From: a virus
Taxonomy: Duplodnaviria > Caudoviricetes
IMG/VR virus record: IMGVR_UViG_3300031673_000067
Location: 1 to 52,418 of that record
Length of the DNA: 52,418 bases
Reading direction: 5' to 3' (one strand)
Made by a program: the position numbers and the translations under genes. A model generated the notes under the pieces. That model saw only the letters and a program-made list of their open reading frames with translations. It made no database searches and was not told where the DNA came from. Numbering within the stretch: position 1 is the first letter of the stretch; each line of letters starts with the position of its first letter. Below, one piece after another: positions 1 through 52,126 of the stretch.

Positions 1-287
1 CGTTCCATATCAACAATTTATTGACGCAGGATATTTTGAGGTAAAAGAAAAAGTCATCCCCACCGGAGAGGCTATACCAGTTACTAAAGTCACATCATCT
101 GGTATTGTGGCGATAGAGAATATAATCAGGAGAATTGGAAATGACCTGTAAAGATTGTAAATATCAGTATAGTCATAGTAGCCGGTGTGTGTATTGTATG
201 CATTATTATGCTCGTATATATACAATACCAGACCAGATTAAAAATAAATTAACTGATAGAAAGGTGAGCATATGCAAATAATTAATA
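1..287. repeat. Left terminal overlap, near-identical to 51002-51288
   Basis: Base-by-base comparison at offset 51001. Identical over 1-113, then transitions at 114, 162, 194, 197, 200 and 270. Similarity ends a few codons into the exonuclease genes. Confidence 0.97.
141..281 (+). CDS. 46-aa CxxC...CxxC zinc-finger microprotein (allele A)
   Basis: Manual translation MTCKDCKYQYSHSSRCVYCMHYY...VSICK*. AGGAG upstream. Overlaps the antirepressor stop and the exonuclease start. Frame conserved in the second copy. Confidence 0.65.
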   Translation: MTCKDCKYQYSHSSRCVYCMHYYARIYTIPDQIKNKLTDRKVSICK

Positions 288-1054
288 CCGAAATTATAAC
301 TAATGACTATTACAAAGTTCCTGCATTATCAAAAAGTTTTCTTGCAAAATTTGCAATTTCCCCGGCACATGCATTTACTAGAACTAAGTCAAAAGCGCTG
401 GGAGACGGGAAATTATTTCACGAATTCGTATTAGAGCCAGAAATATTTAATGCTAATTATGCTATTACATCATTATCGTTAGCAACAAAAGAAGGAAAAG
501 AATTTAAAGAGAATAATAAAAACAAAGAAATTATAAAAACACACGATATGGAAAAATATATTTCTATGCGAAATAATCTATTAAATTTTGATTTTTTCTT
601 TTGCAATGATTCTATGACATTTGGGGAAATAATTGTGAATTCTATAATAGAACAGGGATTTTTCGCAACTGCCAGGATATATGATATAGAATTTTCGATT
701 AAAATTAAACCGGATTTGTATCTTGAACACGATAATACAATCTTGATATTTGATCTCAAAACAGTAGAAAACGCATATAAAAACCAGCGCTGGGATTTTA
801 TTAATTACAAATATGATTGGCAATCAGAGCTATATAAAACTGTAATGCAGGCTAGATACCCGGATAAACAGATCAGATTTATATTTGTTTTGTGCGAAAA
901 AAATCAACCATTTGGCATTCGTTATGTAGAAGTTTTTAGCCCCCACGCTCTAAATAGAATAGAGGATGTTATTTTATTGCATCATGAGTGGGAATTGTCG
1001 GGAGGTGATAAATCTATTATATACAGCCCGAGTATAGAGGTATTAGAAATATGA
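272..1054 (+). CDS. PD-(D/E)XK exonuclease, RecE/ExoVIII C-terminal (DUF3799)-like (allele A)
   Basis: Motifs YYKVPALSKS, GKLFHEFVLEP, KIKPD, IFDLKT, YDWQSELY, FIFVLCEKNQPF; RBS AAGGTGA. Confidence 0.85.
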   Translation: MQIINTEIITNDYYKVPALSKSFLAKFAISPAHAFTRTKSKALGDGKLFHEFVLEPEIFNANYAITSLSLATKEGKEFKENNKNKEIIKTHDMEKYISMRNNLLNFDFFFCNDSMTFGEIIVNSIIEQGFFATARIYDIEFSIKIKPDLYLEHDNTILIFDLKTVENAYKNQRWDFINYKYDWQSELYKTVMQARYPDKQIRFIFVLCEKNQPFGIRYVEVFSPHALNRIEDVILLHHEWELSGGDKSIIYSPSIEVLEI

Positions 1055-1063
1055 GGAGTAAAT

Positions 1064-1372
1064 ATGAATGAATTAGACGTAAAAGAAAAAATTGAAAATG
1101 AATTAAATGAGTATAAAAAGAAAACAATATTTTCTGATGAATTGTTGTGGATTGTCGAATATTTTGACGAATTAAATATCAGATATCTGTTAGACGCTAA
1201 TGATTTAACTTTTCAGTTTAGCTGTTACAATGAACAAATAGAGAATGATGTTAGAGCTATTGCAAAAAGCAATTATCTAACAGGTATTTTCGATGTGGAT
1301 TTTTATATCAAAGATATTTTTGATACTGGCGAGAAAACATTATTTATGAAATTAGAAAGGAAATTAAAATGA
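1064..1372 (+). CDS. Hypothetical protein (short N-terminus allele)
   Basis: 102-aa ORF with GAGGAG RBS; ATGA overlap with the next gene. Confidence 0.8.
   Translation: MNELDVKEKIENELNEYKKKTIFSDELLWIVEYFDELNIRYLLDANDLTFQFSCYNEQIENDVRAIAKSNYLTGIFDVDFYIKDIFDTGEKTLFMKLERKLK
1082..1208. repeat. 127-bp exact copy of the window's last 127 bases (52292-52418)
   Basis: Direct comparison at offset 51210. Confidence 0.97.
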
Positions 1373-1836
1373 GATTTACAATTAAAGAAATTATTAAAAC
1401 TCTCCCTGTTGAAAGTTTTACAGCCCGTGATGGGAAGCCAATGACAAAATTCAAATGGATGGTTAATGGCACAAATGAACAAAATCAGGTAATGCAGAAT
1501 GTCGGTATATACTCATTTTCGAAATGGATTGCAGAAAATCTTAAACCCGGTGTTTACAATGTCGAGCTTGATAATTACCAATTGCAACATAATAATGTAT
1601 CAGTGTATAAAATCACCGATACAAAACCCGAAACTGACAACTATAAACAATATGGTAAAAGTTCGAATAATGTGTCTATTGACAAATTCTGGCATTTAGA
1701 ATCATTAGTCTGGAATCATTTACAAAATAAAGGCATTAGTTCTGAACAGGCATTTATTGATTATGCTGCGAAAGTTTTCGCAACTGCGTGCGTAAATATA
1801 GACTGGAATACAATAGACTCAAATATTGACAAATAA
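1369..1836 (+). CDS. Putative ssDNA-binding/recombination protein; SSB-type acidic tail lies beyond an in-frame TAA
   Basis: Sits after the exonuclease. The same frame continues past TAA(1834-1836) to ...GDTPDDDIPF*(1905). Confidence 0.55.
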   Translation: MRFTIKEIIKTLPVESFTARDGKPMTKFKWMVNGTNEQNQVMQNVGIYSFSKWIAENLKPGVYNVELDNYQLQHNNVSVYKITDTKPETDNYKQYGKSSNNVSIDKFWHLESLVWNHLQNKGISSEQAFIDYAAKVFATACVNIDWNTIDSNIDK

Positions 1837-1930
1837 ATAGATCAAATGAAAAATAATGTTAATCAGGTTTTCGGGGATACCCCGGATGACGATATCCCAT
1901 TCTGAAGATATCCCGTTTTAAGGAAAAACA

Positions 1931-2080
1931 ATGATTATTTTAGCTGAACATAACGGAAACGTATTATACCGCTGCGACTGCGGGTATATTACAAATTATG
2001 AACTATGTGCACAATGTGGCACAAAATTAAAAGAATTATATTTTAAAATGAAGTATAATAATAAAAAGGAGCTACAATGA
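1931..2080 (+). CDS. 49-aa zinc-ribbon microprotein
   Basis: Manual translation MIILAEHNGNVLYRCDCGYITNYELCAQCGTKL...; TAAGGA RBS; ATGA overlap with 2077. Confidence 0.65.
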   Translation: MIILAEHNGNVLYRCDCGYITNYELCAQCGTKLKELYFKMKYNNKKELQ

Positions 2081-2550
2081 CAAAACAAGAAATTATGCAA
2101 ATGGTTAAAAAACCTAAATCAAAAGTATTAGAATTTTTGTTGACAATTCCTGAGGCAGGAAAAGTGAAATATCTTGAGGAATGTCAACTGGTTTTGACGG
2201 ACATCTTTATTGGTGAAATGAAATATAATTTACATCCAGCAAAGTCAAAAAACATTAAAGAGCGTTTTAAAGTGATTGAGAAAATCTTGATTGCATATGG
2301 ATGTAACCAGGATAAAATTGATTACGGCATCAATGCACTTGCGCAAATCGCAATCTACGGATATGAGAAAAAAGCTATAAAAGATAAACTTATAAACAAA
2401 TACAACCCTGTCAACGATGGCATAAATGTAGGTAATGAGATTGCTAAATTACAAAAAGCCAATGCTGGAAAATCTGATAGTATATTTGAGGTTTCTGAGT
2501 TGGATTCTGTAATTGATCCTCTATCTTATGCAAGAGCATTCTGGAGATGA
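2077..2550 (+). CDS. Hypothetical protein translationally coupled to the histidine kinase
   Basis: 157-aa ORF, AAGGAG RBS, ATGA overlap with 2547. Confidence 0.8.
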   Translation: MTKQEIMQMVKKPKSKVLEFLLTIPEAGKVKYLEECQLVLTDIFIGEMKYNLHPAKSKNIKERFKVIEKILIAYGCNQDKIDYGINALAQIAIYGYEKKAIKDKLINKYNPVNDGINVGNEIAKLQKANAGKSDSIFEVSELDSVIDPLSYARAFWR

Positions 2551-3920
2551 CATATTTAAGAATTGATGATTTGCAAAAAGTCAGAAATCATGTCCATTTT
2601 GCAGCAGCGTCATTATTTACGGTAGGCGGTATCTGGTCTACCGTATTAAATTTTAATGATTATAGACAAAGCAACTTAATCAACACACTAAATGTCAATA
2701 GTGTTAAATATGTTCTATTATGCACAATATTAATGGCATTTACGTTTATTCCTCATAGGATATCTCGATATATACAGGTAGCAACTCTTCTATTAGCATC
2801 AACATTATGTATACTGATCAACAATGAAATAGGGGTTGTAGCAGAGTTCCCGTTTCTGGCATGTGCAATTGTTTTAATGTTAGCGTATGGATTTCTCGGT
2901 GATCAGTCTCTTATTTACGATATTAAAAAACATAAATTATTTTTATTAATAACATGGTTTATTCTGGCTTATGTTATCAAGTTTTATATTTATAAATTTG
3001 ATATTATTCAATTTACAATTAGTTATCTTAATCAATATTTTTATTTTTTTGCGTTTTCTATTATTTTAATATTGTCGTTAAAATTAATCATAAGTATTTC
3101 TAATAACATAATCATCAAATTGCGTGAAACAAACATAAATATATCTAACGAAGCAAAGTTATTATATACAGAAATACTAACCAAAAACAACGAGATTGAT
3201 ATTAAAAACAAAGAGATCAATAAAATAACTAAAGAACTATTAATGAAAAACACTTTGACTGAAATAGGAAAAGCTACTTCTAACACGCTACACAGCATAG
3301 GAAATGTTTTAGCACAGGTTAAACTTTTAGGCGATTATATAGAAACTGACTTATCAAAAACTGAGGATATATTCCTCTATGTTGATGTGTCATTAAAATC
3401 TATAAATGACGCTATTAAACTCGTAAATAACGAAAGAAACTATCTTAAATTTGGCATCTCTAATGATATGATGTTAAATGATGTAAAGGATATTATTGAA
3501 GCTGTTTTATATCTATATCGTATAAAAGACAAATATAATTTCATTACCAGTTATTCTAATAATCTAGTAATCAACATCAACGCATGCGAATTCAAAGAGG
3601 CTTTTATGAACATCTTAAAAAATGCTATAGAGGCATCTGAAGATATAATAAAGCCTAATATCTATATAACTGCAAACAGAATTGATGAATATATATATGT
3701 TGAAATAACAGACCAGGGTACCGGTATTGAGATATGTAGTATTTGCGGCAAAAACAATTGTTTAGAATGTAATAAATTTTCACTTGGTAATACAACAAAA
3801 ATAAATGGTTCAGGAAACGGAAAAAGGCAGGTTATAGATTTTTGCAATAAATATGATTATGGATTTAAAATTAAATCAGAGGTAAATAATTTTACAAAAA
3901 TTACTTTGGAATTGAAATGA
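2547..3920 (+). CDS. Membrane sensor histidine kinase (multi-TM input, coiled coil, HisKA-like, HATPase_c)
   Basis: About 5-6 hydrophobic segments; H-box-like NTLHSIGNVL; N-box FMNILKNAIEA; G1 EITDQGTGI; F/G2 FSLGNTTKINGSGNG. Confidence 0.9.
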   Translation: MTYLRIDDLQKVRNHVHFAAASLFTVGGIWSTVLNFNDYRQSNLINTLNVNSVKYVLLCTILMAFTFIPHRISRYIQVATLLLASTLCILINNEIGVVAEFPFLACAIVLMLAYGFLGDQSLIYDIKKHKLFLLITWFILAYVIKFYIYKFDIIQFTISYLNQYFYFFAFSIILILSLKLIISISNNIIIKLRETNINISNEAKLLYTEILTKNNEIDIKNKEINKITKELLMKNTLTEIGKATSNTLHSIGNVLAQVKLLGDYIETDLSKTEDIFLYVDVSLKSINDAIKLVNNERNYLKFGISNDMMLNDVKDIIEAVLYLYRIKDKYNFITSYSNNLVININACEFKEAFMNILKNAIEASEDIIKPNIYITANRIDEYIYVEITDQGTGIEICSICGKNNCLECNKFSLGNTTKINGSGNGKRQVIDFCNKYDYGFKIKSEVNNFTKITLELK

Positions 3921-4081
3921 AAATATATTATATAAATAAATGTGCTGACTGCAAATATTGTGAAGTTGATTATTATACATGGGTTTTATATTGTGCTAAA
4001 GAAAATAGAATAATTGGAGATTATTTTACTGATAATGTTATACCTGAATGGTGTAAGCTAAAAATTCATTTGAGTAAATAA
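3917..4081 (+). CDS. 54-aa Cys-rich microprotein
   Basis: Manual translation MKIYYINKCADCKYCE...YCAKE...VIPEWCKLKIHLSK*; ATGA overlap with the kinase stop. Confidence 0.6.
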   Translation: MKIYYINKCADCKYCEVDYYTWVLYCAKENRIIGDYFTDNVIPEWCKLKIHLSK

Positions 4082-4884
4082 TTAAGTTTGTCATCATTTT
4101 TGACCCTAAACGAATATTGCGAGATGATTGCATCATTTAGTTGGTATCCAATAAAATTTAGGCCTTCCCTTTCCTCTTCCTGCGCATCTAACAATAATCT
4201 TAACTCTCTAAATCTTTTTACTTTTATATAATCTTCCCATATTTGCGAAAGAAAAAAATCTAATATTTGTGTACAGTCCTTCTCAATCGATATTAATGCT
4301 TCCGTATTGGATAGAAAATCTTGTTTTAATTTATCTATAATTTTTATATTGATTAAAGACTTAGCTGTTGTATATAACTCATTATAATCTTTGTGACTGG
4401 TAAACCCTAACTCCAGCGGTTCTATATAAGATAAAATCTGTCCTTTTAAAATTATAATTAATCCCTTATCTGTGCCTGTATAACTACATATCATTTTACT
4501 AAGTCGCTCTATGCTCGGATAAATCCCCAGTTTTTCCATTGCGAGGTGAAACGACTGGCGGTCTTTTTCTGAATTAAACACAGCCTTTTCCATCAGGATA
4601 TAATATTTATCCTGTAGTTCTAATTCTTTTTTTTTATTTTCTATTTTTTGTTTTTCTATTTCACGTTTTTCTTTTTCAGCTTGTTTTATTTCTATTTCTT
4701 TTCTATGACTTTTAATTATATTAATTAAACTCTCTAACCCTCGATTAATAAATTTTATGATTATGTAAACAATCAAAAAAAAAGAGCCTAATACAATAAG
4801 CCCTTTTATGCCTCCAATCAGATCAAACAGCTTTACAACTGCATCGGGATTATCCAAGGCTTTTTCTAATATTTTTTCATTCAT
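4066..4884 (-). CDS. Membrane-anchored coiled-coil hypothetical protein
   Basis: One TM (GLIVLGSFFLIVYIII) followed by a charged coiled coil. Confidence 0.75.
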   Translation of the reverse strand: MNEKILEKALDNPDAVVKLFDLIGGIKGLIVLGSFFLIVYIIIKFINRGLESLINIIKSHRKEIEIKQAEKEKREIEKQKIENKKKELELQDKYYILMEKAVFNSEKDRQSFHLAMEKLGIYPSIERLSKMICSYTGTDKGLIIILKGQILSYIEPLELGFTSHKDYNELYTTAKSLINIKIIDKLKQDFLSNTEALISIEKDCTQILDFFLSQIWEDYIKVKRFRELRLLLDAQEEEREGLNFIGYQLNDAIISQYSFRVKNDDKLNYLLK

Positions 4885-5587
4885 TATTTTTTTTAATAAT
4901 AGTATATAATATTTTTGCTAATTTTTTATAATTAGAAAAAAACATAGAATGATCTGTTTCAATGTTAATTATGTTTTCAATTTCATTATCATTAATCATT
5001 TGTTGCTGTAAATCATAACTAATAGCATGATCTAACAATGTTGATATATAATATTTTTTTGCAATTTTATATTTTGTACCCAATACCATTTTTTCGGTAA
5101 ATGGTATTAATGGTTCTATTGTCAATAATTGTCTTGCTAAATAATGATACATCGTATCACACTCATTATAAAACGCATCAATTATACATTCTCTATTAAT
5201 ATCAACTGTTTTATTTTCTTCATCAACAATAAGATTTTTTCCAGCGATACTATCAATATCTGTCATCGCATAATCTAATAATGATTTTCCGTTTGCTGGT
5301 GCAAATGCTGACAAATATACTCCTGTGACATCTGGATATTTTTCTAGTAATGTGCTTAAAACAATACCAGACATACTGTGTGCTACTATTATAGTTTTTT
5401 TATCAATTATTTGATCTACAATATTAACATAGTTTTGTAATGTTATATTACCAGGATTTTCTTTAGATATGCCATGTCCGGGGAGTTCTACTGCTATTGT
5501 GTTTATACCACTATAATTTAGCATTTTTTCAATTTGAAACCAGCACCATGCACCATGCCATGCCCCGTGTAATAATATTACTCTCAT
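4877..5587 (-). CDS. Alpha/beta hydrolase, methylesterase (SABP2/HNL-like) type
   Basis: HGAWHGAWCW, ELPGHG, nucleophile elbow AHSMSG, Asp in LLDHAI, His in TDHSMF. Confidence 0.9.
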   Translation of the reverse strand: MRVILLHGAWHGAWCWFQIEKMLNYSGINTIAVELPGHGISKENPGNITLQNYVNIVDQIIDKKTIIVAHSMSGIVLSTLLEKYPDVTGVYLSAFAPANGKSLLDYAMTDIDSIAGKNLIVDEENKTVDINRECIIDAFYNECDTMYHYLARQLLTIEPLIPFTEKMVLGTKYKIAKKYYISTLLDHAISYDLQQQMINDNEIENIINIETDHSMFFSNYKKLAKILYTIIKKNNE

Positions 5588-5588
5588 A

Positions 5589-6311
5589 TTATTCCCCCTT
5601 TAATATTTTAATATTATTTTGTTTTTCTGCATCTTTTAATATGTCTATGTGTATATCTGTCGAAATTTCTTTACATTCTTCTAATAAAGTTTTTATGTGT
5701 GTGTCGTTTAATTCGTTTATTTTTTCACCACACTTTTTTATAAATTCTGATCGAGATAGCATATCAAAAGAAAAACTAATATCATTTATTTTTGACTGGA
5801 CTTTACTAAAAACATAACTGTTAACAAAATCTTTATATTTTTCCCATTCATTTATATTGTCATATTTATATAAATGATTTTCTTTTAATATTACTCTCAT
5901 TGTATTTATAAATTCAACCATTCCCGTATTAATAAACAGTTTTAATAGTTTATATTTCTCTTCCGTCTCATTTAATTCAAATTCATTTTTTACAATATTC
6001 ATGATCTTATATATAATAATATCTTTATTTCTTTCTACAATAATCATTTGTTTTTCTATAATTTGTTTTCTCAGAAAATGTATATTATCATTAGCTCTAA
6101 TAATATCCTCAGCAATCTGATCTATTTTTAACTGTGATACACAAAATAAATCATCATTTATTTTTTTTATCTTTATTTCGTTATCATTAAGATTTATTTC
6201 ACCAAATTTAGATTTTATTTTCAGATTTGCTTTTTTAAATATTGCTATAATTATAATTATCAAAACAATAACTGAAATTATTAATATACCTAAAATCATG
6301 TATTCATTCAT
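5589..6311 (-). CDS. N-terminally membrane-anchored hypothetical protein
   Basis: Strong TM at residues ~5-25; helical remainder. Confidence 0.75.
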   Translation of the reverse strand: MNEYMILGILIISVIVLIIIIIAIFKKANLKIKSKFGEINLNDNEIKIKKINDDLFCVSQLKIDQIAEDIIRANDNIHFLRKQIIEKQMIIVERNKDIIIYKIMNIVKNEFELNETEEKYKLLKLFINTGMVEFINTMRVILKENHLYKYDNINEWEKYKDFVNSYVFSKVQSKINDISFSFDMLSRSEFIKKCGEKINELNDTHIKTLLEECKEISTDIHIDILKDAEKQNNIKILKGE

Positions 6312-6570
6312 TTGTTGTCAACTCAATTACTTTCGCAGCCCATAACTCCCATTCGTTTTGTTTATCATCAATATCTTTTAAAAACTCTGCAAATAACTGT
6401 TTTTGTTCAACTGTCATATTTTCAATAAGTTTATTTATTATAATCTTATCATAAATTACTGGTGCTGGAGTTACCGGATAATCATAACTCGGATAAACAT
6501 ATTCAGTCGTTTTGCAGCCGCTTATTGTTAGCATCAATAATAGAATCAATAACGTTGTTAATTTCTTCAT
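6304..6570 (-). CDS. o-spanin (Rz1-like) lipoprotein
   Basis: Start reassigned to 6570 (AAGGAGG RBS). MKKLTTLLILLLMLTISG-C lipobox, Pro-rich PVTPAP, overlaps the 3' end of the i-spanin. Confidence 0.75.
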   Translation of the reverse strand: MKKLTTLLILLLMLTISGCKTTEYVYPSYDYPVTPAPVIYDKIIINKLIENMTVEQKQLFAEFLKDIDDKQNEWELWAAKVIELTTNE

Positions 6571-6805
6571 CTGTTTGTGCCTCCTTAATTTTCTGCTTAA
6601 CATGATAATTGTCTTTTATAATTTCATCTTTAGCATTTTGATAATCTTTTAATATAGTAAGATTTTTTTCTTTCATCTTAACAGTTTCTTTTAAATTATT
6701 TATTTCTTTGTTTTTTCTTTTAATCACTTTTGACATAACAATTATTGTTATTATCAATATTGTTATTGTTAATATAATAGTTCCTATTATTATTGCATAT
6801 ACCAT
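6503..6805 (-). CDS. i-spanin (Rz-like)
   Basis: Start reassigned to 6805 (GGGAG RBS). N-terminal TM plus coiled coil, followed by the lipoprotein. Confidence 0.7.
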   Translation of the reverse strand: MVYAIIIGTIILTITILIITIIVMSKVIKRKNKEINNLKETVKMKEKNLTILKDYQNAKDEIIKDNYHVKQKIKEAQTDEEINNVIDSIIDANNKRLQND

Positions 6806-6971
6806 TGTTTTTCTCCCACTCATTTCTAAATTTAGCAGCAAATAATCGTATCCACTCATATATTGCGATTTCGCCTACGTCATATCCAAGCTGTTCAGAT
6901 TTTAGCCATTTATATTTTAACATTTCTTGAATCTGTGCTTGTAAACATTCATGCTCTAATTGCCAATCCAT
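6720..6971 (-). CDS. Small DUF4032-like protein
   Basis: QIQEMLKYKWLKSEQLGYDVG...AIYEWI pattern recalled from DUF4032-type domains. Confidence 0.5.
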   Translation of the reverse strand: MDWQLEHECLQAQIQEMLKYKWLKSEQLGYDVGEIAIYEWIRLFAAKFRNEWEKNNGICNNNRNYYINNNNIDNNNNCYVKSD

Positions 6972-6973
6972 GA

Positions 6974-7237
6974 TTATTTTTTCTTAGCGAAATTACTTCC
7001 GAGTTTAGCGCCCCAGACAGTTACAAATATTGTTCCCTGGAATGTCAATGTAGCTACAAATGTGTTAGAATCCATACCGTTTTCTGAAAACAATGACAGA
7101 ATACAATAAGCTCCACCCATCATAACCAATATTTCCGATACAATAAACGCAATTGACCCAAGTATTTTTCCGGTAGTCATTTTTTTAGGCTCTTCTTTAG
7201 TTTCTCCTGTTGATATAGGCGTTTCTTGATCACTCAT
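6974..7237 (-). CDS. Putative holin (2 TM)
   Basis: 87 aa, two hydrophobic helices, basic C-terminus AKKK, next to the spanins. Confidence 0.6.
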   Translation of the reverse strand: MSDQETPISTGETKEEPKKMTTGKILGSIAFIVSEILVMMGGAYCILSLFSENGMDSNTFVATLTFQGTIFVTVWGAKLGSNFAKKK

Positions 7238-8235
7238 AACATCTCCTTAAATACATCTGTATATTTATAATATTCTTTTAGATACACATCAATTAACCCA
7301 AAATTATTATTTTCTCCATCGGCCGGGTTTGATCTTCCCCCTGCCGGCTGATCAACATATGCAAAATGATGAAAACCAACAATCCAGGGCTTATTTGTCA
7401 TCCTTATAAAATTTCTTAGTTGTTCTGCTCTTTGTTTTTGGTTTTTATACCGGGGATAAATTCTTTTTATCGTGCTAGGAGTATTTTCAGTAATAGCACG
7501 GAAACCAAATTCTGATATAAGTATAGGTTTTCCTGATATCTGATAAAATCTCTTTAGACAATTTAATGTCATTGTGTGACCTAATATTACCGGAAATATA
7601 TACTCTAACCCCATTCTTAATTTATAGAAATTTACGCTTATGACATCGCAATATTTACCTGCAATTTTCAATACATATCTTGGTGTACATGCACTTACAA
7701 ATCTTACTCCTAAATTAAGCGTATTAGAACAATTCTTTAATATACTATTTGTAGTTTCAAAAAAAGCCTCTGTTTGCTCTTTTGTTTGATTGCTGAACTT
7801 TCTCCAATCACGTCCCCACCACATTTCATTACCAATAAAATAGCCCAGGATTTTTTTATCTTTATCTTTTGCCAGTTGTTCCATTATCTGCTGTTCTGCA
7901 TAATCACGCCATTCCTTTTTTGTGTAATCGTTATCAGTACCCCCGTTATTTTTTGATGTATATATAATAGGTGTTGAGTATTTAAAATATCCAAGATTGC
8001 CTTTACACCATGCCCCATAAGTGTTTAATTTAGTTTCATCCATAAAACTATTTATATATTCAATCCAGTCAGAATCACTCTTAAATTTTTTATCATATGT
8101 TTCTTTAAATATATTTCTTTTTGTAATATAGTCAACACTTCCGCCTGGTGAAACACTATTACATCCAATACTTTTGAATGTTTCCCCATCATGATCTTTA
8201 AAATAATAATTATTGTTTATTTTTGTTATTTTCAT
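7234..8235 (-). CDS. Clan GH-A glycoside hydrolase, GH50 (beta-agarase)-like catalytic domain
   Basis: GYFIGNEMWW (acid/base), LGVRF, YCDVISVNFY, GKPILISEFGF (nucleophile), IVGFHHFAYVDQP, DGENNNFGLID. Confidence 0.8.
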   Translation of the reverse strand: MKITKINNNYYFKDHDGETFKSIGCNSVSPGGSVDYITKRNIFKETYDKKFKSDSDWIEYINSFMDETKLNTYGAWCKGNLGYFKYSTPIIYTSKNNGGTDNDYTKKEWRDYAEQQIMEQLAKDKDKKILGYFIGNEMWWGRDWRKFSNQTKEQTEAFFETTNSILKNCSNTLNLGVRFVSACTPRYVLKIAGKYCDVISVNFYKLRMGLEYIFPVILGHTMTLNCLKRFYQISGKPILISEFGFRAITENTPSTIKRIYPRYKNQKQRAEQLRNFIRMTNKPWIVGFHHFAYVDQPAGGRSNPADGENNNFGLIDVYLKEYYKYTDVFKEML

Positions 8236-10126: not shown

Positions 10127-10798
10127 CTATATTAATAGTTCATATTCCCAATTCATAAAAGATGGAACAACATCATTTAAAGCAATATCAATTAAATCTT
10201 TTGTTGCCTGTGGTATTTCTGCGTTAAAAAATCTTACTGGAAATTCCAGAGGAAATTGATTGTTTGCTAATACGTCACCTCCCAAATCTATCAAAATATA
10301 TAACAACAATTGTCTTTGAAAATACGGTATTCCAAACTTTATCGGGAATGCTGCTGGAAAACTTGATGTTGTCAATCTATCACTTGCAGGTTCTATTACT
10401 ATATCCTGATCTACCATTTTTTTTACATAGTTTTCAATCGTTGTATCGTCATCATCAGCAGGACGGATATTATATACAGGTATTTTTGATATTTTTCGTT
10501 TGACGGCTTCTCTTCTTTTTTCTATCGTGTCAAGCATAGGATATTTAGTACCAATCTCTGTCGATGTTTCCCACTCTGGCAATAATTCATCGACTCTATC
10601 AATATCTGTATTTTTTGCCAGGGTATATAATTGTCCTGTTATTATTTTAATCCATATTGACAAACTTTTAATAAATTTATAAATTATTCGTTCACTATCA
10701 AATCTATTTGCAGTTAATTTACCATCAGGATAGCATTGAGCTAAATAATTTTGTGATTCTTCATCTGTAAACGACCGAAAACTATTAATATTTTTCAT
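10127..10798 (-). CDS. Baseplate protein, Mu gp48/YmfQ (DUF2313)-like
   Basis: ELLPEWE and TIEKRREAV motifs; follows baseplate J. Confidence 0.75.
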   Translation of the reverse strand: MKNINSFRSFTDEESQNYLAQCYPDGKLTANRFDSERIIYKFIKSLSIWIKIITGQLYTLAKNTDIDRVDELLPEWETSTEIGTKYPMLDTIEKRREAVKRKISKIPVYNIRPADDDDTTIENYVKKMVDQDIVIEPASDRLTTSSFPAAFPIKFGIPYFQRQLLLYILIDLGGDVLANNQFPLEFPVRFFNAEIPQATKDLIDIALNDVVPSFMNWEYELLI

Positions 10799-12138
10799 AC
10801 AAATGTTACCGTTCCTCTTATATATATTTCGCCACTTGCAGCCACTAAATTACTAGACGGATTGTTTACCGTTACTGCTGTCAATCTTGCTCCTGTTGCA
10901 TCTGTAATAGTTCTTAGAAATGTTTTTATGTCTTCTAATAATATAGTATATGTTGGATTTCCTACCTGTGCATTATCACGGAAAAAATCTATCAATCTAT
11001 TTCTTACAGCATTCTGCATACTTACAGTATTTGGAGTTAAGTCCTGTAATTCAAAATTTTGTTGTACTAATATTGGCGCAAATAAATATAAATTTTCATC
11101 ACTTGTTAACGTTGGCCAGTTTCCATCATCAATTATTTGTTGTTTTGTTTCATCTAATATTGTTTGAGATGGTGTTATCGAAACATCGTTATCTCTCAAT
11201 ACGTATATTACAGTTTGTCCCAGGGCTGGTATATAACCCGGTACCCCTGGAGTTCCTACAGGTGATGTTTGCCCACGTTCGACAAATACTCTAGTATTAC
11301 CAGCAATTTTTTTTGCAGAGAATATTTCTCCAGATATAGCCGCAATTCCTGGTGTAAGATTTTGAGCTTCGCCAACTCTTACCTTAAAATCTTTTGTGCT
11401 TTCTAAATCAGTTCCACCACTTATTCCACCTGTTTGCGCATATGCAGTGTCATCTATATCTACAACATCTATTTGCAAAGTACCACCAGCACCTATATTT
11501 GTGTTTTGTCCGCTTGCTAAACATTCTATGTTTAGTGATGCATATGTGGCTAGATAATCTCCGCTGTCTGTTGTTAGACTACCTGCTGTCAATTCATATT
11601 GAAATGTTACATTGTCTATTACAGTTATTACAAAAGTTCCGTTGTAATCTGTTTGCACAGCATTAGATATTGTTACTGTTATTCCTGTTGATAATGTGTG
11701 TTCTGCGGCTGTTATTGCTGTTACAATACCCCCAGAATAACTTAAATCTATCTCCCCTTCATATTCTTGCACAACTGCATCTTGTAACACAGAATATGTT
11801 AAACCGTTATTTCCTGTTAGGTTTGTGCCTGTAGGGATTATTGTATTTAATACACCCTCAACACTACAAAATCCTATAGCGCTTTGTGGTTCGTTTTGTG
11901 TTATTTTATTGTACTCACCAGTTTTGGCAAGGAAATCGCCATCCTGAGTTTGCCAGAACATTTGATCAACTGCATCCTCTAATCCTTCCTGCAAATTGCT
12001 TGCAGCTACAGCACTGGTAACGGCTGCCATTTTTGCCAGACTTGCTTCTATAGTAGGATCAACTTCCGGTAATTCTTTTGAAAATTTACCCACTATTGAA
12101 TTATAAAAATCTGTAACTGTTTTTAATAATAATGGCAT
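10795..12138 (-). CDS. Baseplate J / Mu gp47-like wedge protein
   Basis: QMFWQTQDGDFL, GQNTNIGAG, GGTDLES...FKVRV, GQTVIYVL; likely start 12138 (TAATG overlap). Confidence 0.88.
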   Translation of the reverse strand: MPLLLKTVTDFYNSIVGKFSKELPEVDPTIEASLAKMAAVTSAVAASNLQEGLEDAVDQMFWQTQDGDFLAKTGEYNKITQNEPQSAIGFCSVEGVLNTIIPTGTNLTGNNGLTYSVLQDAVVQEYEGEIDLSYSGGIVTAITAAEHTLSTGITVTISNAVQTDYNGTFVITVIDNVTFQYELTAGSLTTDSGDYLATYASLNIECLASGQNTNIGAGGTLQIDVVDIDDTAYAQTGGISGGTDLESTKDFKVRVGEAQNLTPGIAAISGEIFSAKKIAGNTRVFVERGQTSPVGTPGVPGYIPALGQTVIYVLRDNDVSITPSQTILDETKQQIIDDGNWPTLTSDENLYLFAPILVQQNFELQDLTPNTVSMQNAVRNRLIDFFRDNAQVGNPTYTILLEDIKTFLRTITDATGARLTAVTVNNPSSNLVAASGEIYIRGTVTFV

Positions 12139-12554
12139 TAAATAGCCCTCCACAACGAATTATATTTTAATGTTGTATCATTCGACAACTCGATAGTCCC
12201 TGCAATGTTATCTCCGATTATTTCCGCTGTGATTCTTTTTGCACCATATTTACGAAAATATTTCAAACATAGTTTTGTATACTCAGCTATCTCGTTTTTA
12301 TCTGTTTGTGTATTTCTACTTTGTGCTTTTGTATACAAATAACTACCAGCCTCATATCCGGGTTTCGTTATCAGATCACCCAGCCATCCCCCACGCTCAC
12401 GCGGAGTAGACACTTGAAATCTGCTCGCACGTTTATTAGTAAACATCTGGTAATATATAGCTGTCTCAAAACTATCAACCGTCACAAACTGTTTATTTTC
12501 AATTACCAGATCAAATGTAGTATCTTCTAATTGTTCAACTTTAAAGTCTTGCAT
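12138..12554 (-). CDS. Mu gp46-like baseplate protein
   Basis: FETAIYYQMFTNKRA, RGGWLGD, GSYLY motifs. Confidence 0.8.
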   Translation of the reverse strand: MQDFKVEQLEDTTFDLVIENKQFVTVDSFETAIYYQMFTNKRASRFQVSTPRERGGWLGDLITKPGYEAGSYLYTKAQSRNTQTDKNEIAEYTKLCLKYFRKYGAKRITAEIIGDNIAGTIELSNDTTLKYNSLWRAI

Positions 12555-15455: not shown

Positions 15456-17405
15456 CTACTTCGCATAATTCATATTCATTCCGAGATTCCCCGATTTGTT
15501 AAATGGTTGTATACCTATCCCTTTTTCAGTATATATGTTCAAATCCATGTTAGCATTAAGATTTTGATTTTGGTTATTTACAACTGGTGCTACTGTTGGT
15601 GTTGTAGGCGCTGCCACGTATTTAATATCATACTGTGATCGTCTTAACATTGCGGCTAAATCTCCGACTCTTTTTACTGTCAATCGTTCTGTAGCCCCTG
15701 CCGCCTGGTCTAGCGCTCCTGTTATTTTTTCTGTGTTATATAATGCATTTTTCTGTCTATCTTCTAATGATTTCATTATATCTGTATTTTTTGTTTCTTC
15801 AATATCAGCTTGCATCCTGGCTCTTTCTTTGTCCATCTCAGCCTGTTTTTTTCGCATCGCTTCTTCATCACCAAACAATTTTTCTTTAAAGTTAGCAATT
15901 CCTTGTAGTGCATTTTTAGCCCATTTCCCAACACCTGGTATGTTAGAAGCTACTTTCAATATAGCTTCTAGCGGATTGAGTAACGCTGATACAATAACTT
16001 TACCTATCGCTAAAATTCCCTGACCTATACCGCCTGTTGTGAATGCCAGTTTTACATATTGCCACCGCAATTGTATTTCTCTAATCACGTCTATAATTGG
16101 AAGAAACATTTTGGTAACATTTATAATAACTTCTCTTAAAGTTTCTGGATCAACATTGAAAACATCTGCTATTTTATCAGTTACATCTGTAAAGATGTTT
16201 TTTGCTTTATTCCATAGCTCCATTACTTTATCCCAATTTTTATACAGAATTATAGTTAATCCAATAGCAATACCTATTGCTGTTATAACCATTCCTACTG
16301 GGTTTGCCCTCATAAGAGCATTAAATATCGCCTGTACAATATTAGCAGATTTTTGAGCTTTTACCATTCTCATTATAATATTAACATATTTTATCATTGG
16401 CGCAACTGCTACAGCCGTCATCATTGCAACTCTGTAAATTTTCCATGCAACTACCATCCCTAATATCATGGGAACAAATGGTTTAATTATTTTATACATT
16501 ATCTTAATTGTATTTATTGCTTTACTAATAATATTCATAGCTAAATCAAATGCCTGTACAATTCTCAATCCTATTTCCTCAGCGTTTATCCCGGCTACTA
16601 TTTTGTTAAGTTTTTTGAATATATCTGTAATTTTTGGCAATATAGGTAACATTATCTGTCCTAGTTTTTCCCCAAACCTGGTCTGTAATACTCTTTGCTG
16701 GTTTGCTAACGATTCTTCTAATGTTTTATTAAAATCTCCTTGCGCATCCCTGGAAGCGTTCATGATAAATTGATACCTCAACATTGTTTGTTGCTGTTGT
16801 GACATGTTCTTCCACTGTGTTTTAATACCCTGTGTCAACGCAAATGTCTCCATGTTGGCTACACTCATATTTATGCCGAGCTGTTTTAGGGGTTCTGTCT
16901 CTCCTGAAATTCCCGACCTAAGTTTCATAAACGCTTCTTCATGTGGTAAGTTATAAAATGACGCAAAATCCCCGGCTAATCCGGTTAAATCCTGCGCCAT
17001 ATAGGAGAGGTTATCGCCAGTAATCCCAGTAGATTTTAATAATGCTCCCATAGTTCCTGTAAACTGCTTTGCTTGTAATTCAGATAAACCAAATGAGTCA
17101 AGTGCTGTTTTAGCCCATGCATCCATTACGGGGGTTGCCTCTTTAAATGTGGTTGATACAACGTTTTGTGCTTCTGTCAGATCACTTGCTAAAGAAACAC
17201 CTTTTACAAACGCTGCTGTCAATCCTCCGATAGCTGCTATGGCTCCTACTGTTGTCAATGTTCTAAATCCTGATTGTAATCCTGCTAATTGTTGTTGTGC
17301 TATTCCCACATCTTTTATTAATTGTTTTTGAGCATTTTTCATAACTTTTAATTTTGGAGAATATTGATCAATTAGTTTATATATATACTCTATTGTATTA
17401 GCCAC
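15456..17405 (-). CDS. Tail tape measure protein
   Basis: 649 aa, GTG start; ASDLTEAQN, GISGETEPLKQLGINM, ANPVGMVITAI. Confidence 0.92.
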   Translation of the reverse strand: MANTIEYIYKLIDQYSPKLKVMKNAQKQLIKDVGIAQQQLAGLQSGFRTLTTVGAIAAIGGLTAAFVKGVSLASDLTEAQNVVSTTFKEATPVMDAWAKTALDSFGLSELQAKQFTGTMGALLKSTGITGDNLSYMAQDLTGLAGDFASFYNLPHEEAFMKLRSGISGETEPLKQLGINMSVANMETFALTQGIKTQWKNMSQQQQTMLRYQFIMNASRDAQGDFNKTLEESLANQQRVLQTRFGEKLGQIMLPILPKITDIFKKLNKIVAGINAEEIGLRIVQAFDLAMNIISKAINTIKIMYKIIKPFVPMILGMVVAWKIYRVAMMTAVAVAPMIKYVNIIMRMVKAQKSANIVQAIFNALMRANPVGMVITAIGIAIGLTIILYKNWDKVMELWNKAKNIFTDVTDKIADVFNVDPETLREVIINVTKMFLPIIDVIREIQLRWQYVKLAFTTGGIGQGILAIGKVIVSALLNPLEAILKVASNIPGVGKWAKNALQGIANFKEKLFGDEEAMRKKQAEMDKERARMQADIEETKNTDIMKSLEDRQKNALYNTEKITGALDQAAGATERLTVKRVGDLAAMLRRSQYDIKYVAAPTTPTVAPVVNNQNQNLNANMDLNIYTEKGIGIQPFNKSGNLGMNMNYAK

Positions 17406-18490: not shown

Positions 18491-20047
18491 TTAACCTCCT
18501 ACCGTAAAACTTAATTGAAATGTGACAACAAAATCTCTTATTTGAGTAACAATTGGCAGCTTGCCAGAACTCGTAACTTTGCCATTTGCATAATCTAATG
18601 TAAGCGTTAGATTGTCAAGAAAATAATTTGTAGCATCTGTCCCGGCTTGAGTAAGTACAAAATCTTGACCTGACAGGCGAGTATAAATAGCAAGATACTG
18701 TGCTTCAATAGATTTTCTATTTTGGATTAGTCTGCCATCAACTAAACTTCCTTCTGTTAATCTGCTTTGGGAATTATTTGCTTTTAATGTGGCAAAAAAT
18801 ATTTCAAGTGCAAGATAACCAGTTCTTACATAGTTGAGGTATTTAAACGACGGATCAGGATTACCAAGCGTGTCAAACTTATAGGTTGTTACAACCTCTC
18901 CCATAATTGCCGAGGTTTTGCTGCTATTAACACCTACTATTGTGTAACCATCATTTTTTAGATTTACCTGTTCCTGCCCCGTGAATAACAAATTAGGATC
19001 AGCTATATCGGTTAATGCCAGTGGTGTGTTGTAATATGCCAGAGAAGCAAGACCTGCATTACCTACAACATCTCTCGGAGCTGACGTAGTGACATATTGC
19101 GCAATTGGCACTCCGTCTGTCTGTCTCATAGCCTCTATTGCGATAAACTCAGCTGCTCTCCAATCAGGAGGTGTTACTTTAACAGCCTCGCCTGTAATTT
19201 CACGGTTACCCATAAATATTAAATCGTAACTGTTTAAGGGTATGCCGCCGTTTACCTTAGTACTTATATTAGCCTCTGTGTCATCATATCCGATAAATCC
19301 TACTCCGTGTAAAAACTCATTGTTAATCACGTTTCTTGCTTCCAAGAAATCCTCTAGCTCTGAAAAATCATTTTCCCATGGCCAGCTTATCGCATGAAAT
19401 CTGATTGATGTTACATTGTCAAATATGGTTGTGGTTACCGGATCATTAGTGCCTCCGCTAAACTGTCCTGCTGTGACTGTAAGACCTGCAACCTCAGTAA
19501 TACATTTTACGGTAAATTTGTTTGGGATAGTTCCACCGTCTGTGGCTGTCAACGGCAATGTGGCAACTGCTACTGCTCCGGACGTTGCCGGTATTCCTAC
19601 AAGTGCATCATAGGCTGTTTTAATGTTTGCCGCTACTGTTGCCGCTGCATCCGTATTTGTTACACTTACATTAAATGTGTATTCGTCTGCATCAATGGCT
19701 TTAAATGTCAATATCCCATCTTCTGTGGCTGCTCCTGTTACTACTATATCAAGTGTGGCATTTGTAGCAGTGCCAGATTCATCAAGCGCTATAACCCCTA
19801 TAGCACTTCTGCCAAGTATTACCGCCCGTGCTTTTTTTATCCTGCCTGTAAGTTCACTAGCCGATCCAAACAATGTTTCAATTTGTGTATTAGTCAGGCT
19901 CTCAACATCTGCATAATACTGCCCGGATGTCGCTGTGCCGCCTGTTCCTATCTGTCCTACTAATAAAATTCTCCATGGTTCAGCCCCGACCACACCAGCT
20001 GCTGCTAGTAGTTGTGCTGTAACTCGTGGTAATGATGTAACACTCAT
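18491..20047 (-). CDS. Tail sheath protein (Mu gpL-like)
   Basis: ILLVGQ, LFGSASEL, VVTTYKFDTLGNPDPSFKYLNYVRT. Confidence 0.9.
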   Translation of the reverse strand: MSVTSLPRVTAQLLAAAGVVGAEPWRILLVGQIGTGGTATSGQYYADVESLTNTQIETLFGSASELTGRIKKARAVILGRSAIGVIALDESGTATNATLDIVVTGAATEDGILTFKAIDADEYTFNVSVTNTDAAATVAANIKTAYDALVGIPATSGAVAVATLPLTATDGGTIPNKFTVKCITEVAGLTVTAGQFSGGTNDPVTTTIFDNVTSIRFHAISWPWENDFSELEDFLEARNVINNEFLHGVGFIGYDDTEANISTKVNGGIPLNSYDLIFMGNREITGEAVKVTPPDWRAAEFIAIEAMRQTDGVPIAQYVTTSAPRDVVGNAGLASLAYYNTPLALTDIADPNLLFTGQEQVNLKNDGYTIVGVNSSKTSAIMGEVVTTYKFDTLGNPDPSFKYLNYVRTGYLALEIFFATLKANNSQSRLTEGSLVDGRLIQNRKSIEAQYLAIYTRLSGQDFVLTQAGTDATNYFLDNLTLTLDYANGKVTSSGKLPIVTQIRDFVVTFQLSFTVGG

Positions 20048-23603: not shown

Positions 23604-24929
23604 TTATGCCTTTCTTTTCATTCTGATACCGGCTTCTTTAATTTTTGGTTTTCCGACACACCACTTATTAAATGTAAATTCCACAATGCCTTCTAGCTTC
23701 CTGGAATATTCATCCCTAATTATAGTCATTTCTGTCCTATCAACAATTTGATAAAACCTAAACATATCAGCAAGTAAAATAGGATATCCGCCTGATACAT
23801 CGGGGTCGTCAAATTCAATAAAAGCGCTTGAATACCTAATACCATTAATTGTAGCTGCCGGCCCGGCAGCTCCATCTCCAAACGGACCGTTCCAAATAAA
23901 TCTTCCTGCACCGTCTTCTAATAATCTTAAATATGCCAATGTTCTTCTATTAAACATAAAAAGTGCATTATACCCTGATTTTAATTCTCCCATTATTCTA
24001 ATAAGGTCTGAAAATTCTAATGTCGTTGTAAGTGTTTCATACTGAGGCACATTTGGATCGACTGTAAATCCTAGTCCTTCTTCTACACCAGAACCATTAA
24101 AAAATTCTTGAGCTTCTTTTACTGCAAACGCCTCGGAATTATCAATCATTAGCTCATTTGCCAAATTGTAATTATTAAATAACAGTTCATCCGTAGTTAT
24201 CGGGGTAGTGTTTGTTAATCTTACTGGTGTGTAATCATCCATTGCATGTGTTGAGGTTGATTTTCCTCCAGTTCTGGCTTCTCCTGGCCTTGTTGCTACT
24301 GGAATCCCTACTCTTGCTGCTTCTTTGTAGATTTTTGATCCTGTTGTTTTAATTCTTGCATATTGTCTTAGAGGTGAGTACTCAATCATATTTTTATTAA
24401 GTTCGTTTGAATATTCTGGAGCACATAAATATCCTCCCAACTCTCCAATATCTGAACGTAACAAATCAGGGGTTGCTTTTATATTCTGTACAATTTGATT
24501 CATTTTCTCGCCGCCATCTACAAATTGATATTCAAATTTTGCAATGCTATTTATTACATTTTGTGCCTTTACAATATTCTCATCTTTGGCAATAAATTTA
24601 GTCCATTGATTTTTTAACATTGCGTTCATTACATCTTCTGTGTCTTTAATGCTTGGTTGATGTGGTGTCACATTAGCTGTGCTGGCAATAGTTTCAAGAT
24701 GTTGAATTCTATTTTTTAATTCTTCATTCTTTTTTTCTTCCTCTGCCAGTTTAGCTACTATTTCTTCGTTTTTTTCATCAAGGGTTTTCATTTTCACATC
24801 TGATTCATCAACATATCTTTTATATTCTGCTGAATCAACCCCATATTTTTTAGCAAGTTCTCTTGTTTTTGTAACAATCTCATTCATTGATTGTTTGTCG
24901 TCTTCTGTAAATTTAATTTCCTCAGACAT
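23604..24929 (-). CDS. Major capsid protein, HK97 fold with coiled-coil delta domain
   Basis: GGYLCAPEY, EFFNGSG, LRLLEDGAGRFIW, ADMFRFYQIVDR. Confidence 0.95.
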   Translation of the reverse strand: MSEEIKFTEDDKQSMNEIVTKTRELAKKYGVDSAEYKRYVDESDVKMKTLDEKNEEIVAKLAEEEKKNEELKNRIQHLETIASTANVTPHQPSIKDTEDVMNAMLKNQWTKFIAKDENIVKAQNVINSIAKFEYQFVDGGEKMNQIVQNIKATPDLLRSDIGELGGYLCAPEYSNELNKNMIEYSPLRQYARIKTTGSKIYKEAARVGIPVATRPGEARTGGKSTSTHAMDDYTPVRLTNTTPITTDELLFNNYNLANELMIDNSEAFAVKEAQEFFNGSGVEEGLGFTVDPNVPQYETLTTTLEFSDLIRIMGELKSGYNALFMFNRRTLAYLRLLEDGAGRFIWNGPFGDGAAGPAATINGIRYSSAFIEFDDPDVSGGYPILLADMFRFYQIVDRTEMTIIRDEYSRKLEGIVEFTFNKWCVGKPKIKEAGIRMKRKA

Positions 24930-24941
24930 TATATTCTCCTT

Positions 24942-26093
24942 TCATTTTATCCCATCTAATATATTATTTAATTCTTTTAATTCATCAGACATATTATTTT
25001 CTTTGACCGCCTCATCATTCTTTCCGTGAACAATCCGATCAATAATATATTTTTCCGCTGAATTACTAAGAATAATATCATTATCTTTTTGAAATAATTT
25101 TTCATAGTCTCTTTTTTCAAATGCTTTTATTGTGTCTATATCAACAAATGTTTTATCATTTTTAAATGGTGGTTCTCTGTCCATTTTTTCATAATATTTG
25201 TTCAATTGTGATTTTATCTTTGATTTATCCGCATCTGGTATATTAACTCCGCCTCTTGCACCGCTTAATGCTGCTGCTATAGCAAATATAGCTTTGGGTA
25301 CTGCTTTTATTTTTCCACCTTCTACATATACGTAAGGCAATTTGTATCCGCCGTAATTATCCTCTTCATCTGGATTAAAATACATAAACCCGTTTTTATA
25401 TGTGTTGCTTGGTTTTTCGCTTGAGTTTGTCTGCGTTTTAATTTGATTTACAGCTTTTCCTTTATCCCATTTTGTATCAACTGACATTAGATCATAGTTT
25501 TTATATGCTGGCACAGCTTTGCTTTCAATATCTTCACATATTCCAAGATTACTAGCAAATTCACATATATACTTATCCGTGCTTTTTCTTTCTGTTGATT
25601 TTATATATTTTCTTACTGAAAAAATACAGGCTTTTTCATTCATTGGAAATGTAACAAAACTTGATTCTTCTATGGTTCCTTTAATCAAATCTCTACATTT
25701 GTCTTGTGTGTTATAATATTCTTCAATAGTACAATATCCAATCGAAGCTCCCTGTATAGACCCAACTTTTACCTGTGGCAATACCCTTCCTGTTACAAAT
25801 GTATCATCAGTTGGTAATTTTGCTTCAAACATTAGCCCTTGCTCTGTGTCAGTATAAAAATTAACTCCCACCGGTTCTGTAGTCCTATGTTGCCATAACG
25901 CCGGTCGTTGGTTACCTCGTTTTTTTAAATCGTCTGTAAAAAATCCTGGTTTTACTCTGTCTTTTCCCAAATCTATATTATTATAAAATGAGGCATAACC
26001 GCTAATATATGCGTATTCATCACCCATATCATCAGTTTTCTTTTCTATAGCTTTTATCTGTAATGGGATTAACATATAATCTTTTTCGTTCAT
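24942..26093 (-). CDS. HK97-family prohead protease with C-terminal extension
   Basis: ISGYASFYNNIDLGKD, LWQH, GASIGY, ESSFVTFPMN; extra domain YKLPY...GARGGVNIP. Confidence 0.92.
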   Translation of the reverse strand: MNEKDYMLIPLQIKAIEKKTDDMGDEYAYISGYASFYNNIDLGKDRVKPGFFTDDLKKRGNQRPALWQHRTTEPVGVNFYTDTEQGLMFEAKLPTDDTFVTGRVLPQVKVGSIQGASIGYCTIEEYYNTQDKCRDLIKGTIEESSFVTFPMNEKACIFSVRKYIKSTERKSTDKYICEFASNLGICEDIESKAVPAYKNYDLMSVDTKWDKGKAVNQIKTQTNSSEKPSNTYKNGFMYFNPDEEDNYGGYKLPYVYVEGGKIKAVPKAIFAIAAALSGARGGVNIPDADKSKIKSQLNKYYEKMDREPPFKNDKTFVDIDTIKAFEKRDYEKLFQKDNDIILSNSAEKYIIDRIVHGKNDEAVKENNMSDELKELNNILDGIK

Positions 26094-50355: not shown

Positions 50356-50577
50356 ATGAAAGGAGTATTTATGAAATACATTACTATGAAAGCAATCGAC
50401 TGGGAAAGATTTTTTCGAGAGACAGAACTAAGTCCAGCTGAGACAGCGGTAAAAATAAATAGGTCTGCTGCTACTATATATGCGTATATAGATAGAAAAT
50501 ATCTTAAACTTTCTACTATTAATAACATGATCAAAAATTTTCCAGAAATAAAAAATTATATTATTGAGGACAAATGA
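50356..50577 (+). CDS. Cro-like helix-turn-helix protein
   Basis: LSPAETAVKINRSAATIYAY HTH pattern; true start probably at MKYITM after AGGAG. Confidence 0.7.
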   Translation: MKGVFMKYITMKAIDWERFFRETELSPAETAVKINRSAATIYAYIDRKYLKLSTINNMIKNFPEIKNYIIEDK

Positions 50578-52124: not shown

Positions 52125-52126
52125 TT

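Follow-up and report, generated by a model that had tools for sequence, protein, structure and literature searches.

Clostridium difficile phage phiCDHM1 is a myovirus that carries agrC, agrB and agrD without the matching response regulator; the sections of its description consulted here report close homologues in the host and propose that the kinase influences host signaling (PMC3901668). Histidine kinases are well studied, yet signal input through the catalytic domain has been documented for few of them: a 2021 review, in the part that we consulted, tabulates SrrB, CckA and RavS alone as kinases whose catalytic and ATP-binding (CA) domain does the sensing (PMC8534201). For SrrB of Staphylococcus aureus, that same part gives a redox-sensitive disulfide between two distant CA-domain cysteines as the proposed determinant of activity (PMC8534201). 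Here we describe a histidine kinase gene in IMGVR_UViG_3300031673_000067 (Caudoviricetes), a viral record of 52,418 bp that was analyzed over its whole length and is called the window below. The encoded kinase is an orphan, phage-borne member of an apparently undescribed histidine kinase family marked by a four-cysteine (Cys4) segment in the ATP lid. A conserved Cys4 site in the lids of dozens of divergent clusters suggests that metal or oxidation may gate kinase activity in a way that has gone unrecognized. A virus that carries an orphan sensor kinase, perhaps a phosphatase-biased one, is a rare case, and such a protein would tap or silence a host pathway. The phage copy is also a compact, AT-rich and naturally isolated member of its family for study.

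Like the AgrC of phiCDHM1, as the consulted sections describe it, the soil-phage protein is a multi-pass membrane kinase borne by a myovirus that lacks a matching regulator. Unlike phiCDHM1, the window yielded no signal-synthesis gene, in searches none of which was aimed at agrB or agrD, and no close homologue of the kinase turned up in deposited phage genomes or plasmids. With SrrB, so far as the consulted part of the review goes, it shares cysteines that lie inside the catalytic rather than the sensor domain. The four cysteines of the phage protein, however, are gathered in a 12-residue knuckle of the ATP lid, which suggests metal binding.

What kind of kinase is it? The original prediction had read an intact enzyme with H, N, G1, F and G2 boxes, and alignments, profile searches of the PDB and the modeled fold bore this out. 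Aligned with its homologues, the protein has H249 within TLHSIGN, N355/N359, D389-x-G391-x-G393, F411, T416-T417-K418 and G421-x-G423-x-G425. H249, N359, G421, G423 and G425 are kept in 35/35 rows of a family alignment (A5). The phage copy thus retains every ATP-binding and phospho-acceptor residue. A 12-member family profile searched against PDB sequences matched ZraS best (9jfj, 9.8e-30), then the cytoplasmic part of KinB (3d36, 5.4e-23) and ThkA (3.4e-20), and the dimerization and histidine phosphotransfer (DHp) region aligned to the DHp of all three. We then compared folds, using an AlphaFold2 (AF2) model built on 35 relatives (mean predicted local distance difference test score [pLDDT], 83.4; predicted template modeling score, 0.54). 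Foldseek matched HK853, YycG, KinB and ZraS at E ~1e-11. VIA-align placed the CA domain nearest to ZraS (9jfj; Z 20.0, root mean square deviation 2.1 over 143 residues) and ThkA (3a0t; Z 19.6), while the CA domain of AgrC ranked 49th with Z 13.0. No NCBIfam model reached its cut-off for the phage kinase; the best was AtoS, and no AgrC, LuxN or CqsS model matched.

The protein has a DHp hairpin with a conserved phospho-acceptor histidine and a GHKL-type CA domain with N, G1, F and G2 boxes. At the positions that follow the histidine, where class I kinases combine an acid at H+1 with Thr or Asn at H+4, it reads H-S-I-G-N, with no acid at H+1 and Asn at H+4. We conclude from sequence and model that the gene encodes a class I (HisKA-type) sensor histidine kinase. 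This assignment rests on profile searches, PDB searches and fold rather than on Pfam: HisKA did not match the phage kinase, nor did HATPase_c_5 at E<=1. Of the two PHROG profiles that matched, phrog_857 and phrog_10912, the former is a generic kinase profile that also matched 13/14 control genomes. An AgrC-type (HPK10) assignment does not fit, with HATPase_c_5 absent, AtoS the best model, AgrC far down the list of CA folds and no receiver gene; in its core the phage kinase thus departs from the AgrC of phiCDHM1.

The enzymes most like it are ZraS, AtoS, NtrB and ThkA, class I kinases of the 'F-x-PF-x-TTK-x2-GTGLGL' CA type. ZraS, AtoS and ThkA supply the best sequence matches and folds, and the type shares with the phage kinase the DHp histidine, the N, G1, F and G2 boxes and the TTK before G2. 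The phage protein differs from the ZraS type in the longer CxxC-x4-CxxC segment between G1 and F box, in the H+1 residue (Ser or Asn in the phage family, Glu in the ZraS type), in an input made of six membrane helices rather than a periplasmic or PAS domain, and in the lack of an adjacent regulator, whether of sigma-54 type or another.

KinB, LuxN and CqsS are six-helix, loop-poor kinases whose input consists almost wholly of membrane helices, and LuxN and CqsS are hybrid kinases that contain a receiver domain. A likeness to AgrC, LuxN and CqsS had been proposed for the phage kinase. It stands for topology and fails for the catalytic core, which sides with ZraS and ThkA. In the AF2 model, helices span residues 6-39, 50-66, 71-91, 100-114, 130-149 and 153-267. 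Because the linking loops are of at most ~15 residues, the sensor input is membrane-embedded, in agreement with what had been predicted. The sixth helix runs unbroken to residue 267 and is followed by a helix at 272-304, which completes the DHp hairpin, and then by the alpha/beta CA domain. Given six helices and a cytoplasmic kinase, the N terminus should be cytoplasmic. The resemblance to KinB, LuxN and CqsS in this part is one of architecture, with no similarity of the membrane parts shown; the KinB alignment, moreover, falls into two stretches that skip the lid segment, and the phage kinase, unlike LuxN and CqsS, has no receiver domain.

We next consider the ATP lid. The segment C397-x2-C400-x4-C405-x2-C408 lies between G1 and F box, as first described, in a region modeled with pLDDT of ~86-90 (blocks 391-410). 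The stretch from G1 to TTK is ~7-8 residues longer than in ZraS by the PDB alignment, and the cysteines were seen in none of the three PDB alignments (ZraS, KinB, ThkA). Perhaps, then, the segment was a private insert of the phage protein? A HMMER search against 1.84 billion representatives gave 761 matches at E<=1e-3, and of these we examined the best 150. Only two are close relatives: P0002, which is 47% identical, also 457 aa long and aligned end to end (1-455), and P0003 (28%). Another, P0007, aligned over nearly its full length (47-454). Among the 19 top full-length matches, chosen by rank and length before the motif was known, 16 carry CxxC...CxxC at the same place, 1 has four cysteines otherwise spaced and 2 lack them. 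The motif occurs in 41 of the 150 best representatives (after a canonical DxGxG in 31 and after a variant G1 in 10). The conservation that the original prediction had proposed to check is therefore present, and the idea of a private insert does not hold.

The motif-bearing sequences also cluster on a tree. On a FastTree phylogeny of 142 DHp-CA regions, computed with the lid columns removed, it requires 8 changes, compared with a mean of 32.2 when labels were shuffled (0/500 shuffles were as low); the well-supported branches by themselves make at least 3 changes necessary. The phage kinase, P0002 and P0003 form a clade with a support of 100. In A5, which has 35 rows and was assembled from motif-bearing sequences so that cysteine conservation there is by construction, the spacer between the CxxC pairs is 4 residues in 22 rows, 3 in 6, 5 in 4 and 6 in 1. 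The membrane part is common to the family as well: HMMER alignments extend over a homologous six-helix N-terminal region, with Q77 kept in 30/35 rows and Y114 in 31/35. The H-box reads G-x7-H-[NSD]-x-[KR]-[NS], and further family features are a conserved Q in the third transmembrane helix, Y-G-F after the fourth, and a lid CxxC-x3-6-CxxC before F-x2-G-x-[TS][TS]-K-x2-GxGxG. The phage kinase has this lid block in C397, C400, C405, C408, F411, G414, T416, T417 and K418; a DNA pattern for the block matched once in the window, with 0 matches expected by chance. Taken together, these alignments indicate that the Cys4 segment is the signature of a wider, unnamed kinase family that couples a six-helix sensor to a ZraS/AtoS-like CA domain.

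Has this family been described? Nothing that we came upon in Pfam, NCBIfam, solved structures or the literature covers it. Pfam matched 35 members through HATPase_c (31), HATPase_c_5 (15) and HisKA (3) and through no other family, and the membrane part matched no Pfam family in any of the 35+10 members scanned. The terms cysteine, CxxC, phage, virus, orphan and ATP lid are all absent from the main text of a 2026 preprint on new HisKA-like profiles. The nearest clusters in the ESM Atlas are all multi-pass kinases from mixed phyla, which offer no hint of the host. Apparently, then, the family is undescribed.

The phage kinase has no partner regulator in the window. Response_reg (PF00072) had no match anywhere in it at E<=1, in a search that was positive in 14/14 control genomes, so that neither beside the kinase nor elsewhere in the phage record is there a receiver protein, as had been predicted. 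A near-identical chromosomal copy beside a regulator would have changed this picture; none turned up, in searches that did not include a genome-wide scan of reference genomes. A metagenome scan found 6 loci, 3 of them with Cys4 kinases (GC of 0.48-0.55). Two of these 3 have readable flanks: in L003 an acyltransferase lies upstream of the kinase and an SH3_3-like protein overlaps it downstream, and in L004 the kinase stands beside an uncharacterized 130-aa protein and an alcohol dehydrogenase. A receiver gene adjoins the kinase in neither (0/2), which hints that the family is generally orphan. In L003 (883-2987, + strand), the SH3_3-like gene overlaps the kinase gene by 4 nt and encodes 255 aa; its SH3_3 match is below threshold (24.5 vs 27 bits), and the protein is a possible recurrent partner.

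What might such a kinase do for the phage? As a homodimer, it would insert into the inner membrane of a host that is Gram-negative and low in GC. With no receiver domain encoded by the phage, the kinase would exchange phosphate with a host response regulator, and this could re-set a pathway of the infected host. The consulted part of one study reports, for four HisKA kinases, that kinase activity alone depended on the H+1 acid and phosphatase activity alone on the H+4 Thr/Asn (PMC3510030). Since H-S-I-G-N, read by this rule, pairs Ser at H+1 with a retained Asn at H+4, the phage protein may be better suited to a role as phosphatase or phosphate sink than as a strong kinase, in keeping with the original idea that it drains a host pathway. 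As for the lid, its four cysteines, set in two CxxC knuckles over 12 residues, would most plausibly bind a single metal ion, and that ion would most likely be Zn. The metal site may stiffen the ATP lid, and lid closure could respond to oxidation or to metal supply, much as has been proposed for the SrrB disulfide. We give roughly even chances to the joint reading in which a host response regulator is the target of the kinase, maybe with a phosphatase bias, and the Cys4 lid probably binds metal.

Several points weigh against that joint reading. HATPase_c scored 21.4 bits on the phage kinase, under its cut-off of 26.4. HisKA matches only 3/35 family members, which makes the H+1/H+4 rule an extrapolation here. 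The H+1 residue across the 35 members is N in 14, S in 10, D in 9, L in 1 and T in 1; the acid is thus absent in 26/35, all of which have the ATP-binding residues and are unlikely all to be kinase-dead. Metal binding was guessed from the motif rather than from the geometry of the model coordinates, and the site may serve structure and nothing more, which is no less likely than a regulatory role. The bacterial context consists of two short metagenome contigs only. The kinase shows no sequence variation across runs, and none of the six soil runs that contain the phage DNA is RNA.

The best of the alternatives, which we consider less probable yet quite possible, takes the protein to be a true autokinase, one that, on a membrane or redox cue, phosphorylates a host regulator and activates a host regulon rather than serving as phosphatase or sink. 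The ATP-binding boxes, K418 and H249 are all intact, the lid is conserved rather than decayed, and the 26 family members that likewise lack the H+1 acid suggest that the family probably autophosphorylates by another route. Ser, however, occupies the H+1 position where, in the consulted part of the study of four HisKA kinases, an acid was required (PMC3510030). A bolder version of the metal-binding proposal seems doubtful to us: that the Cys4 knuckle is a metal or redox latch and defines a new class of kinases sensing through the CA domain, captured by the phage to read the redox, metal or membrane state of the host and rewiring an unlinked host regulator so that infection is timed or protected.

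Class I kinases are obligate dimers through their DHp. Could the phage protein then act without catalysis of its own, as a decoy that forms mixed dimers with a host kinase of the family, or titrates a regulator or accessory protein, and so blocks an envelope or stress response? The sensor, DHp and CA architecture is all as in the bacterial family, and the gene lies in an early block of takeover type beside an anti-repressor. Outside the three-member clade of the phage protein, however, none of the bacterial members seen exceeds 28% identity, which is low for heterodimers, and the catalytic residues, free to decay in a pure decoy, are kept. We think this unlikely.

We hold it similarly improbable that the partner is encoded by the phage, with the 49-aa and 157-aa proteins or the 54-aa Cys-rich protein as non-canonical substrate or regulator. 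ATGA overlaps tie the kinase gene to the neighbors on both its sides at the end of the rightward block, and a third such overlap joins the 49-aa and 157-aa frames (Table 1). In a variant contig, the 49-aa and 157-aa frames are fused in frame into a single 206-aa protein (P0170), which implies that they work together; the two are probably halves of one function. Against a phage-encoded partner, neighboring position alone is weak evidence, and the coupled small proteins have no family match or relative outside this phage. The 157-aa and 54-aa proteins matched no Pfam, PHROG or PADLOC family. A word-based homologue search with the 157-aa protein returned only itself. A complex prediction for the cytoplasmic part of the kinase with the 157-aa protein scored 0.00 and speaks neither for nor against the pair. 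PADLOC models gave 0 matches for the kinase and 8 neighboring proteins at E<=0.01, and hence no hint of a role in defense.

Is the kinase a phage gene at all? The + strand is restricted to two stretches, 50574-52418 and 1-4081, and the two ends of the record fall in one module of recombination or early type, with the kinase ~4 kb inside it. Its G+C content at third codon positions (GC3) is 0.238, within the range of 0.15-0.295 of other phage genes. Because the ends share one module and the GC3 lies in the phage range, we regard the kinase as a true phage gene and not host flank. That it is a passenger from the host without a phage role, or host DNA attached to a viral contig, is very improbable. 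In its favor, the searches found no relative in any other IMG/VR viral contig or in deposited phage genomes, and a variant contig that departs right after kinase residue 451 suggests a mosaic joint at the 3' end. Against it, the kinase is flanked on either side by phage genes, its composition is that of the phage core genes and not that of the bacterial family loci, the intact gene retains every motif and overlaps its neighbors, and a full-length relative at 47% identity has the same length and motifs.

That variant, P0151, is a 497-aa protein on a 3.4-kb contig, identical to the kinase through residue 451 and continuing with 46 unrelated residues (window ~3899-3920); the divergence is either a mosaic joint at the kinase 3' end or an assembly chimera. 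Phage DNA is present in six soil metagenome runs, three of which are possibly its source, and contigs from other runs show no differences from the kinase over 2435-3856. The 157-aa frame, by comparison, carries in-frame indels of 15 and 21 nt in other soil runs. One run, X4, has base changes and a 1-nt insertion at 2072-2076 that agree with the fused 206-aa form.

Among viruses, the phage copy stands almost alone. Neither DNA search nor tblastn, even at E=10, retrieved a relative of the kinase from deposited phage genomes, and P0007, a less biased family member, as query against 50,697 phage records gave one weak match to the CA domain. In IMG/VR, whose collections may leave out the record analyzed here, no true relative was found by six scans, of which two were derived from the protein, one used the bacterial subfamily and three relied on DNA motif patterns. 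Two pattern matches there were set aside as chance: L002 lies out of frame and contains stops, while L009 falls in an off-frame ORF of a head-gene region. A G2-side DNA pattern found 0 stretches in IMG/VR at partial sensitivity, since it recovers L001 and L010, which are window-derived, and 1/3 bacterial Cys4 loci. Plasmids held no close homologue, only generic ZraS-like kinases, and word-based homologue searches with the kinase returned the query itself or generic kinases only.

The record itself is 97% complete by CheckV and has no end repeats. By gene content (terminase, portal, capsid, sheath, tape measure, baseplate), it is a contractile-tailed phage, a myovirus, whose DNA comes from soil metagenomes. 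Open reading frames (ORFs) on the + strand overrun both record ends (52127-52418 and 1-151). Because they do not join in frame, the record probably misses a short piece at its ends. The window yielded neither an integrase nor a resolvase, and an integrase could sit in the missing piece. The label 'early operon' for the rightward block would follow from gene content and strand; a promoter scan stayed at chance level (37 sites vs 34.7 expected). Three small Cys-rich ORFs of CxxC type (48, 49 and 54 aa) lie in the kinase's block, at 135-281, 1931-2080 and 3917-4081 (+ strand), and none of them matched a family in Pfam or PHROG.

Table 1. Positions in the window of the kinase gene, its parts and junctions, and other phage genes
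Feature	Position	Strand	Basis
Histidine kinase gene, 457 aa, ATG start	2547..3920	+	ORF, HMMER relatives, PDB profile matches, AF2 model, fold matches
Membrane sensor region, residues 1-188, six predicted transmembrane helices, short loops	2547..3110	+	Hydropathy, AF2
Coiled-coil linker and DHp hairpin, residues 189-304	3111..3458	+	AF2 helices, PDB alignment
Codon of phospho-acceptor H249	3291-3293	+	
CA domain, residues 305-457, N/G1/F/G2 boxes	3459..3917	+	VIA-align, box residues
Cys4 segment of the ATP lid, between G1 and F box	3735..3770	+	
ATGA overlap, 49-aa/157-aa ORFs	2077	+	
ATGA overlap, 157-aa ORF/kinase	2547	+	
ATGA overlap, kinase/54-aa ORF	3917	+	
49-aa zinc-ribbon-like ORF, CxC...CxxC	1931..2080	+	
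157-aa ORF, AGGAG 6 nt upstream of start	2077..2550	+	
54-aa Cys-rich ORF (CxxCxxC...C...C), last gene of rightward block	3917..4081	+	
DUF3799/exonuclease VIII-like PD-(D/E)XK protein, small ORFs, kinase, 54-aa Cys-rich ORF	within 1-4081	+	
Anti-repressor Ant and exonuclease	within 50574-52418	+	
99-aa ORF, lipobox LTISGC	6304-6603	-	phrog_456 Rz-like spanin, 3.7e-4
118-aa ORF, N-terminal membrane helix and coiled coil	6503-6859	-	phrog_214 Rz-like spanin, 4.2e-5
Baseplate wedge	10798-12153	-	
Tape measure	15459-17405	-	
Sheath	18494-20047	-	
Major capsid	23607-24929	-	
Protease/scaffold	24945-26093	-	
Portal	26981-28261	-	
Large terminase	32631-33983	-	
DnaB-like helicase, DnaD-like organizer, DNA methyltransferase		-	

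Which host might the phage infect? The Rz-like spanin pair points to a host with an outer membrane, that is, a Gram-negative one, and on the same ground we set aside a reading of the kinase as a KinB-like sporulation kinase for a Firmicute host. Relatives of the large terminase and of DnaB are distant and come from mixed hosts, and the window has no tRNA genes. The two spanin ORFs overlap, and both of their PHROG matches are weak. Next to them lie an 87-aa membrane protein (6974-7237) and a 333-aa protein without a family (7234-8235), and the four genes together resemble a lysis cassette. Between the kinase block and these lysis genes, at 4877-5587 on the - strand, we observed a gene for a 236-aa alpha/beta-hydrolase-like protein that matches phrog_789 (esterase/lipase, 1.6e-7) and has a very low GC3 of 0.152.

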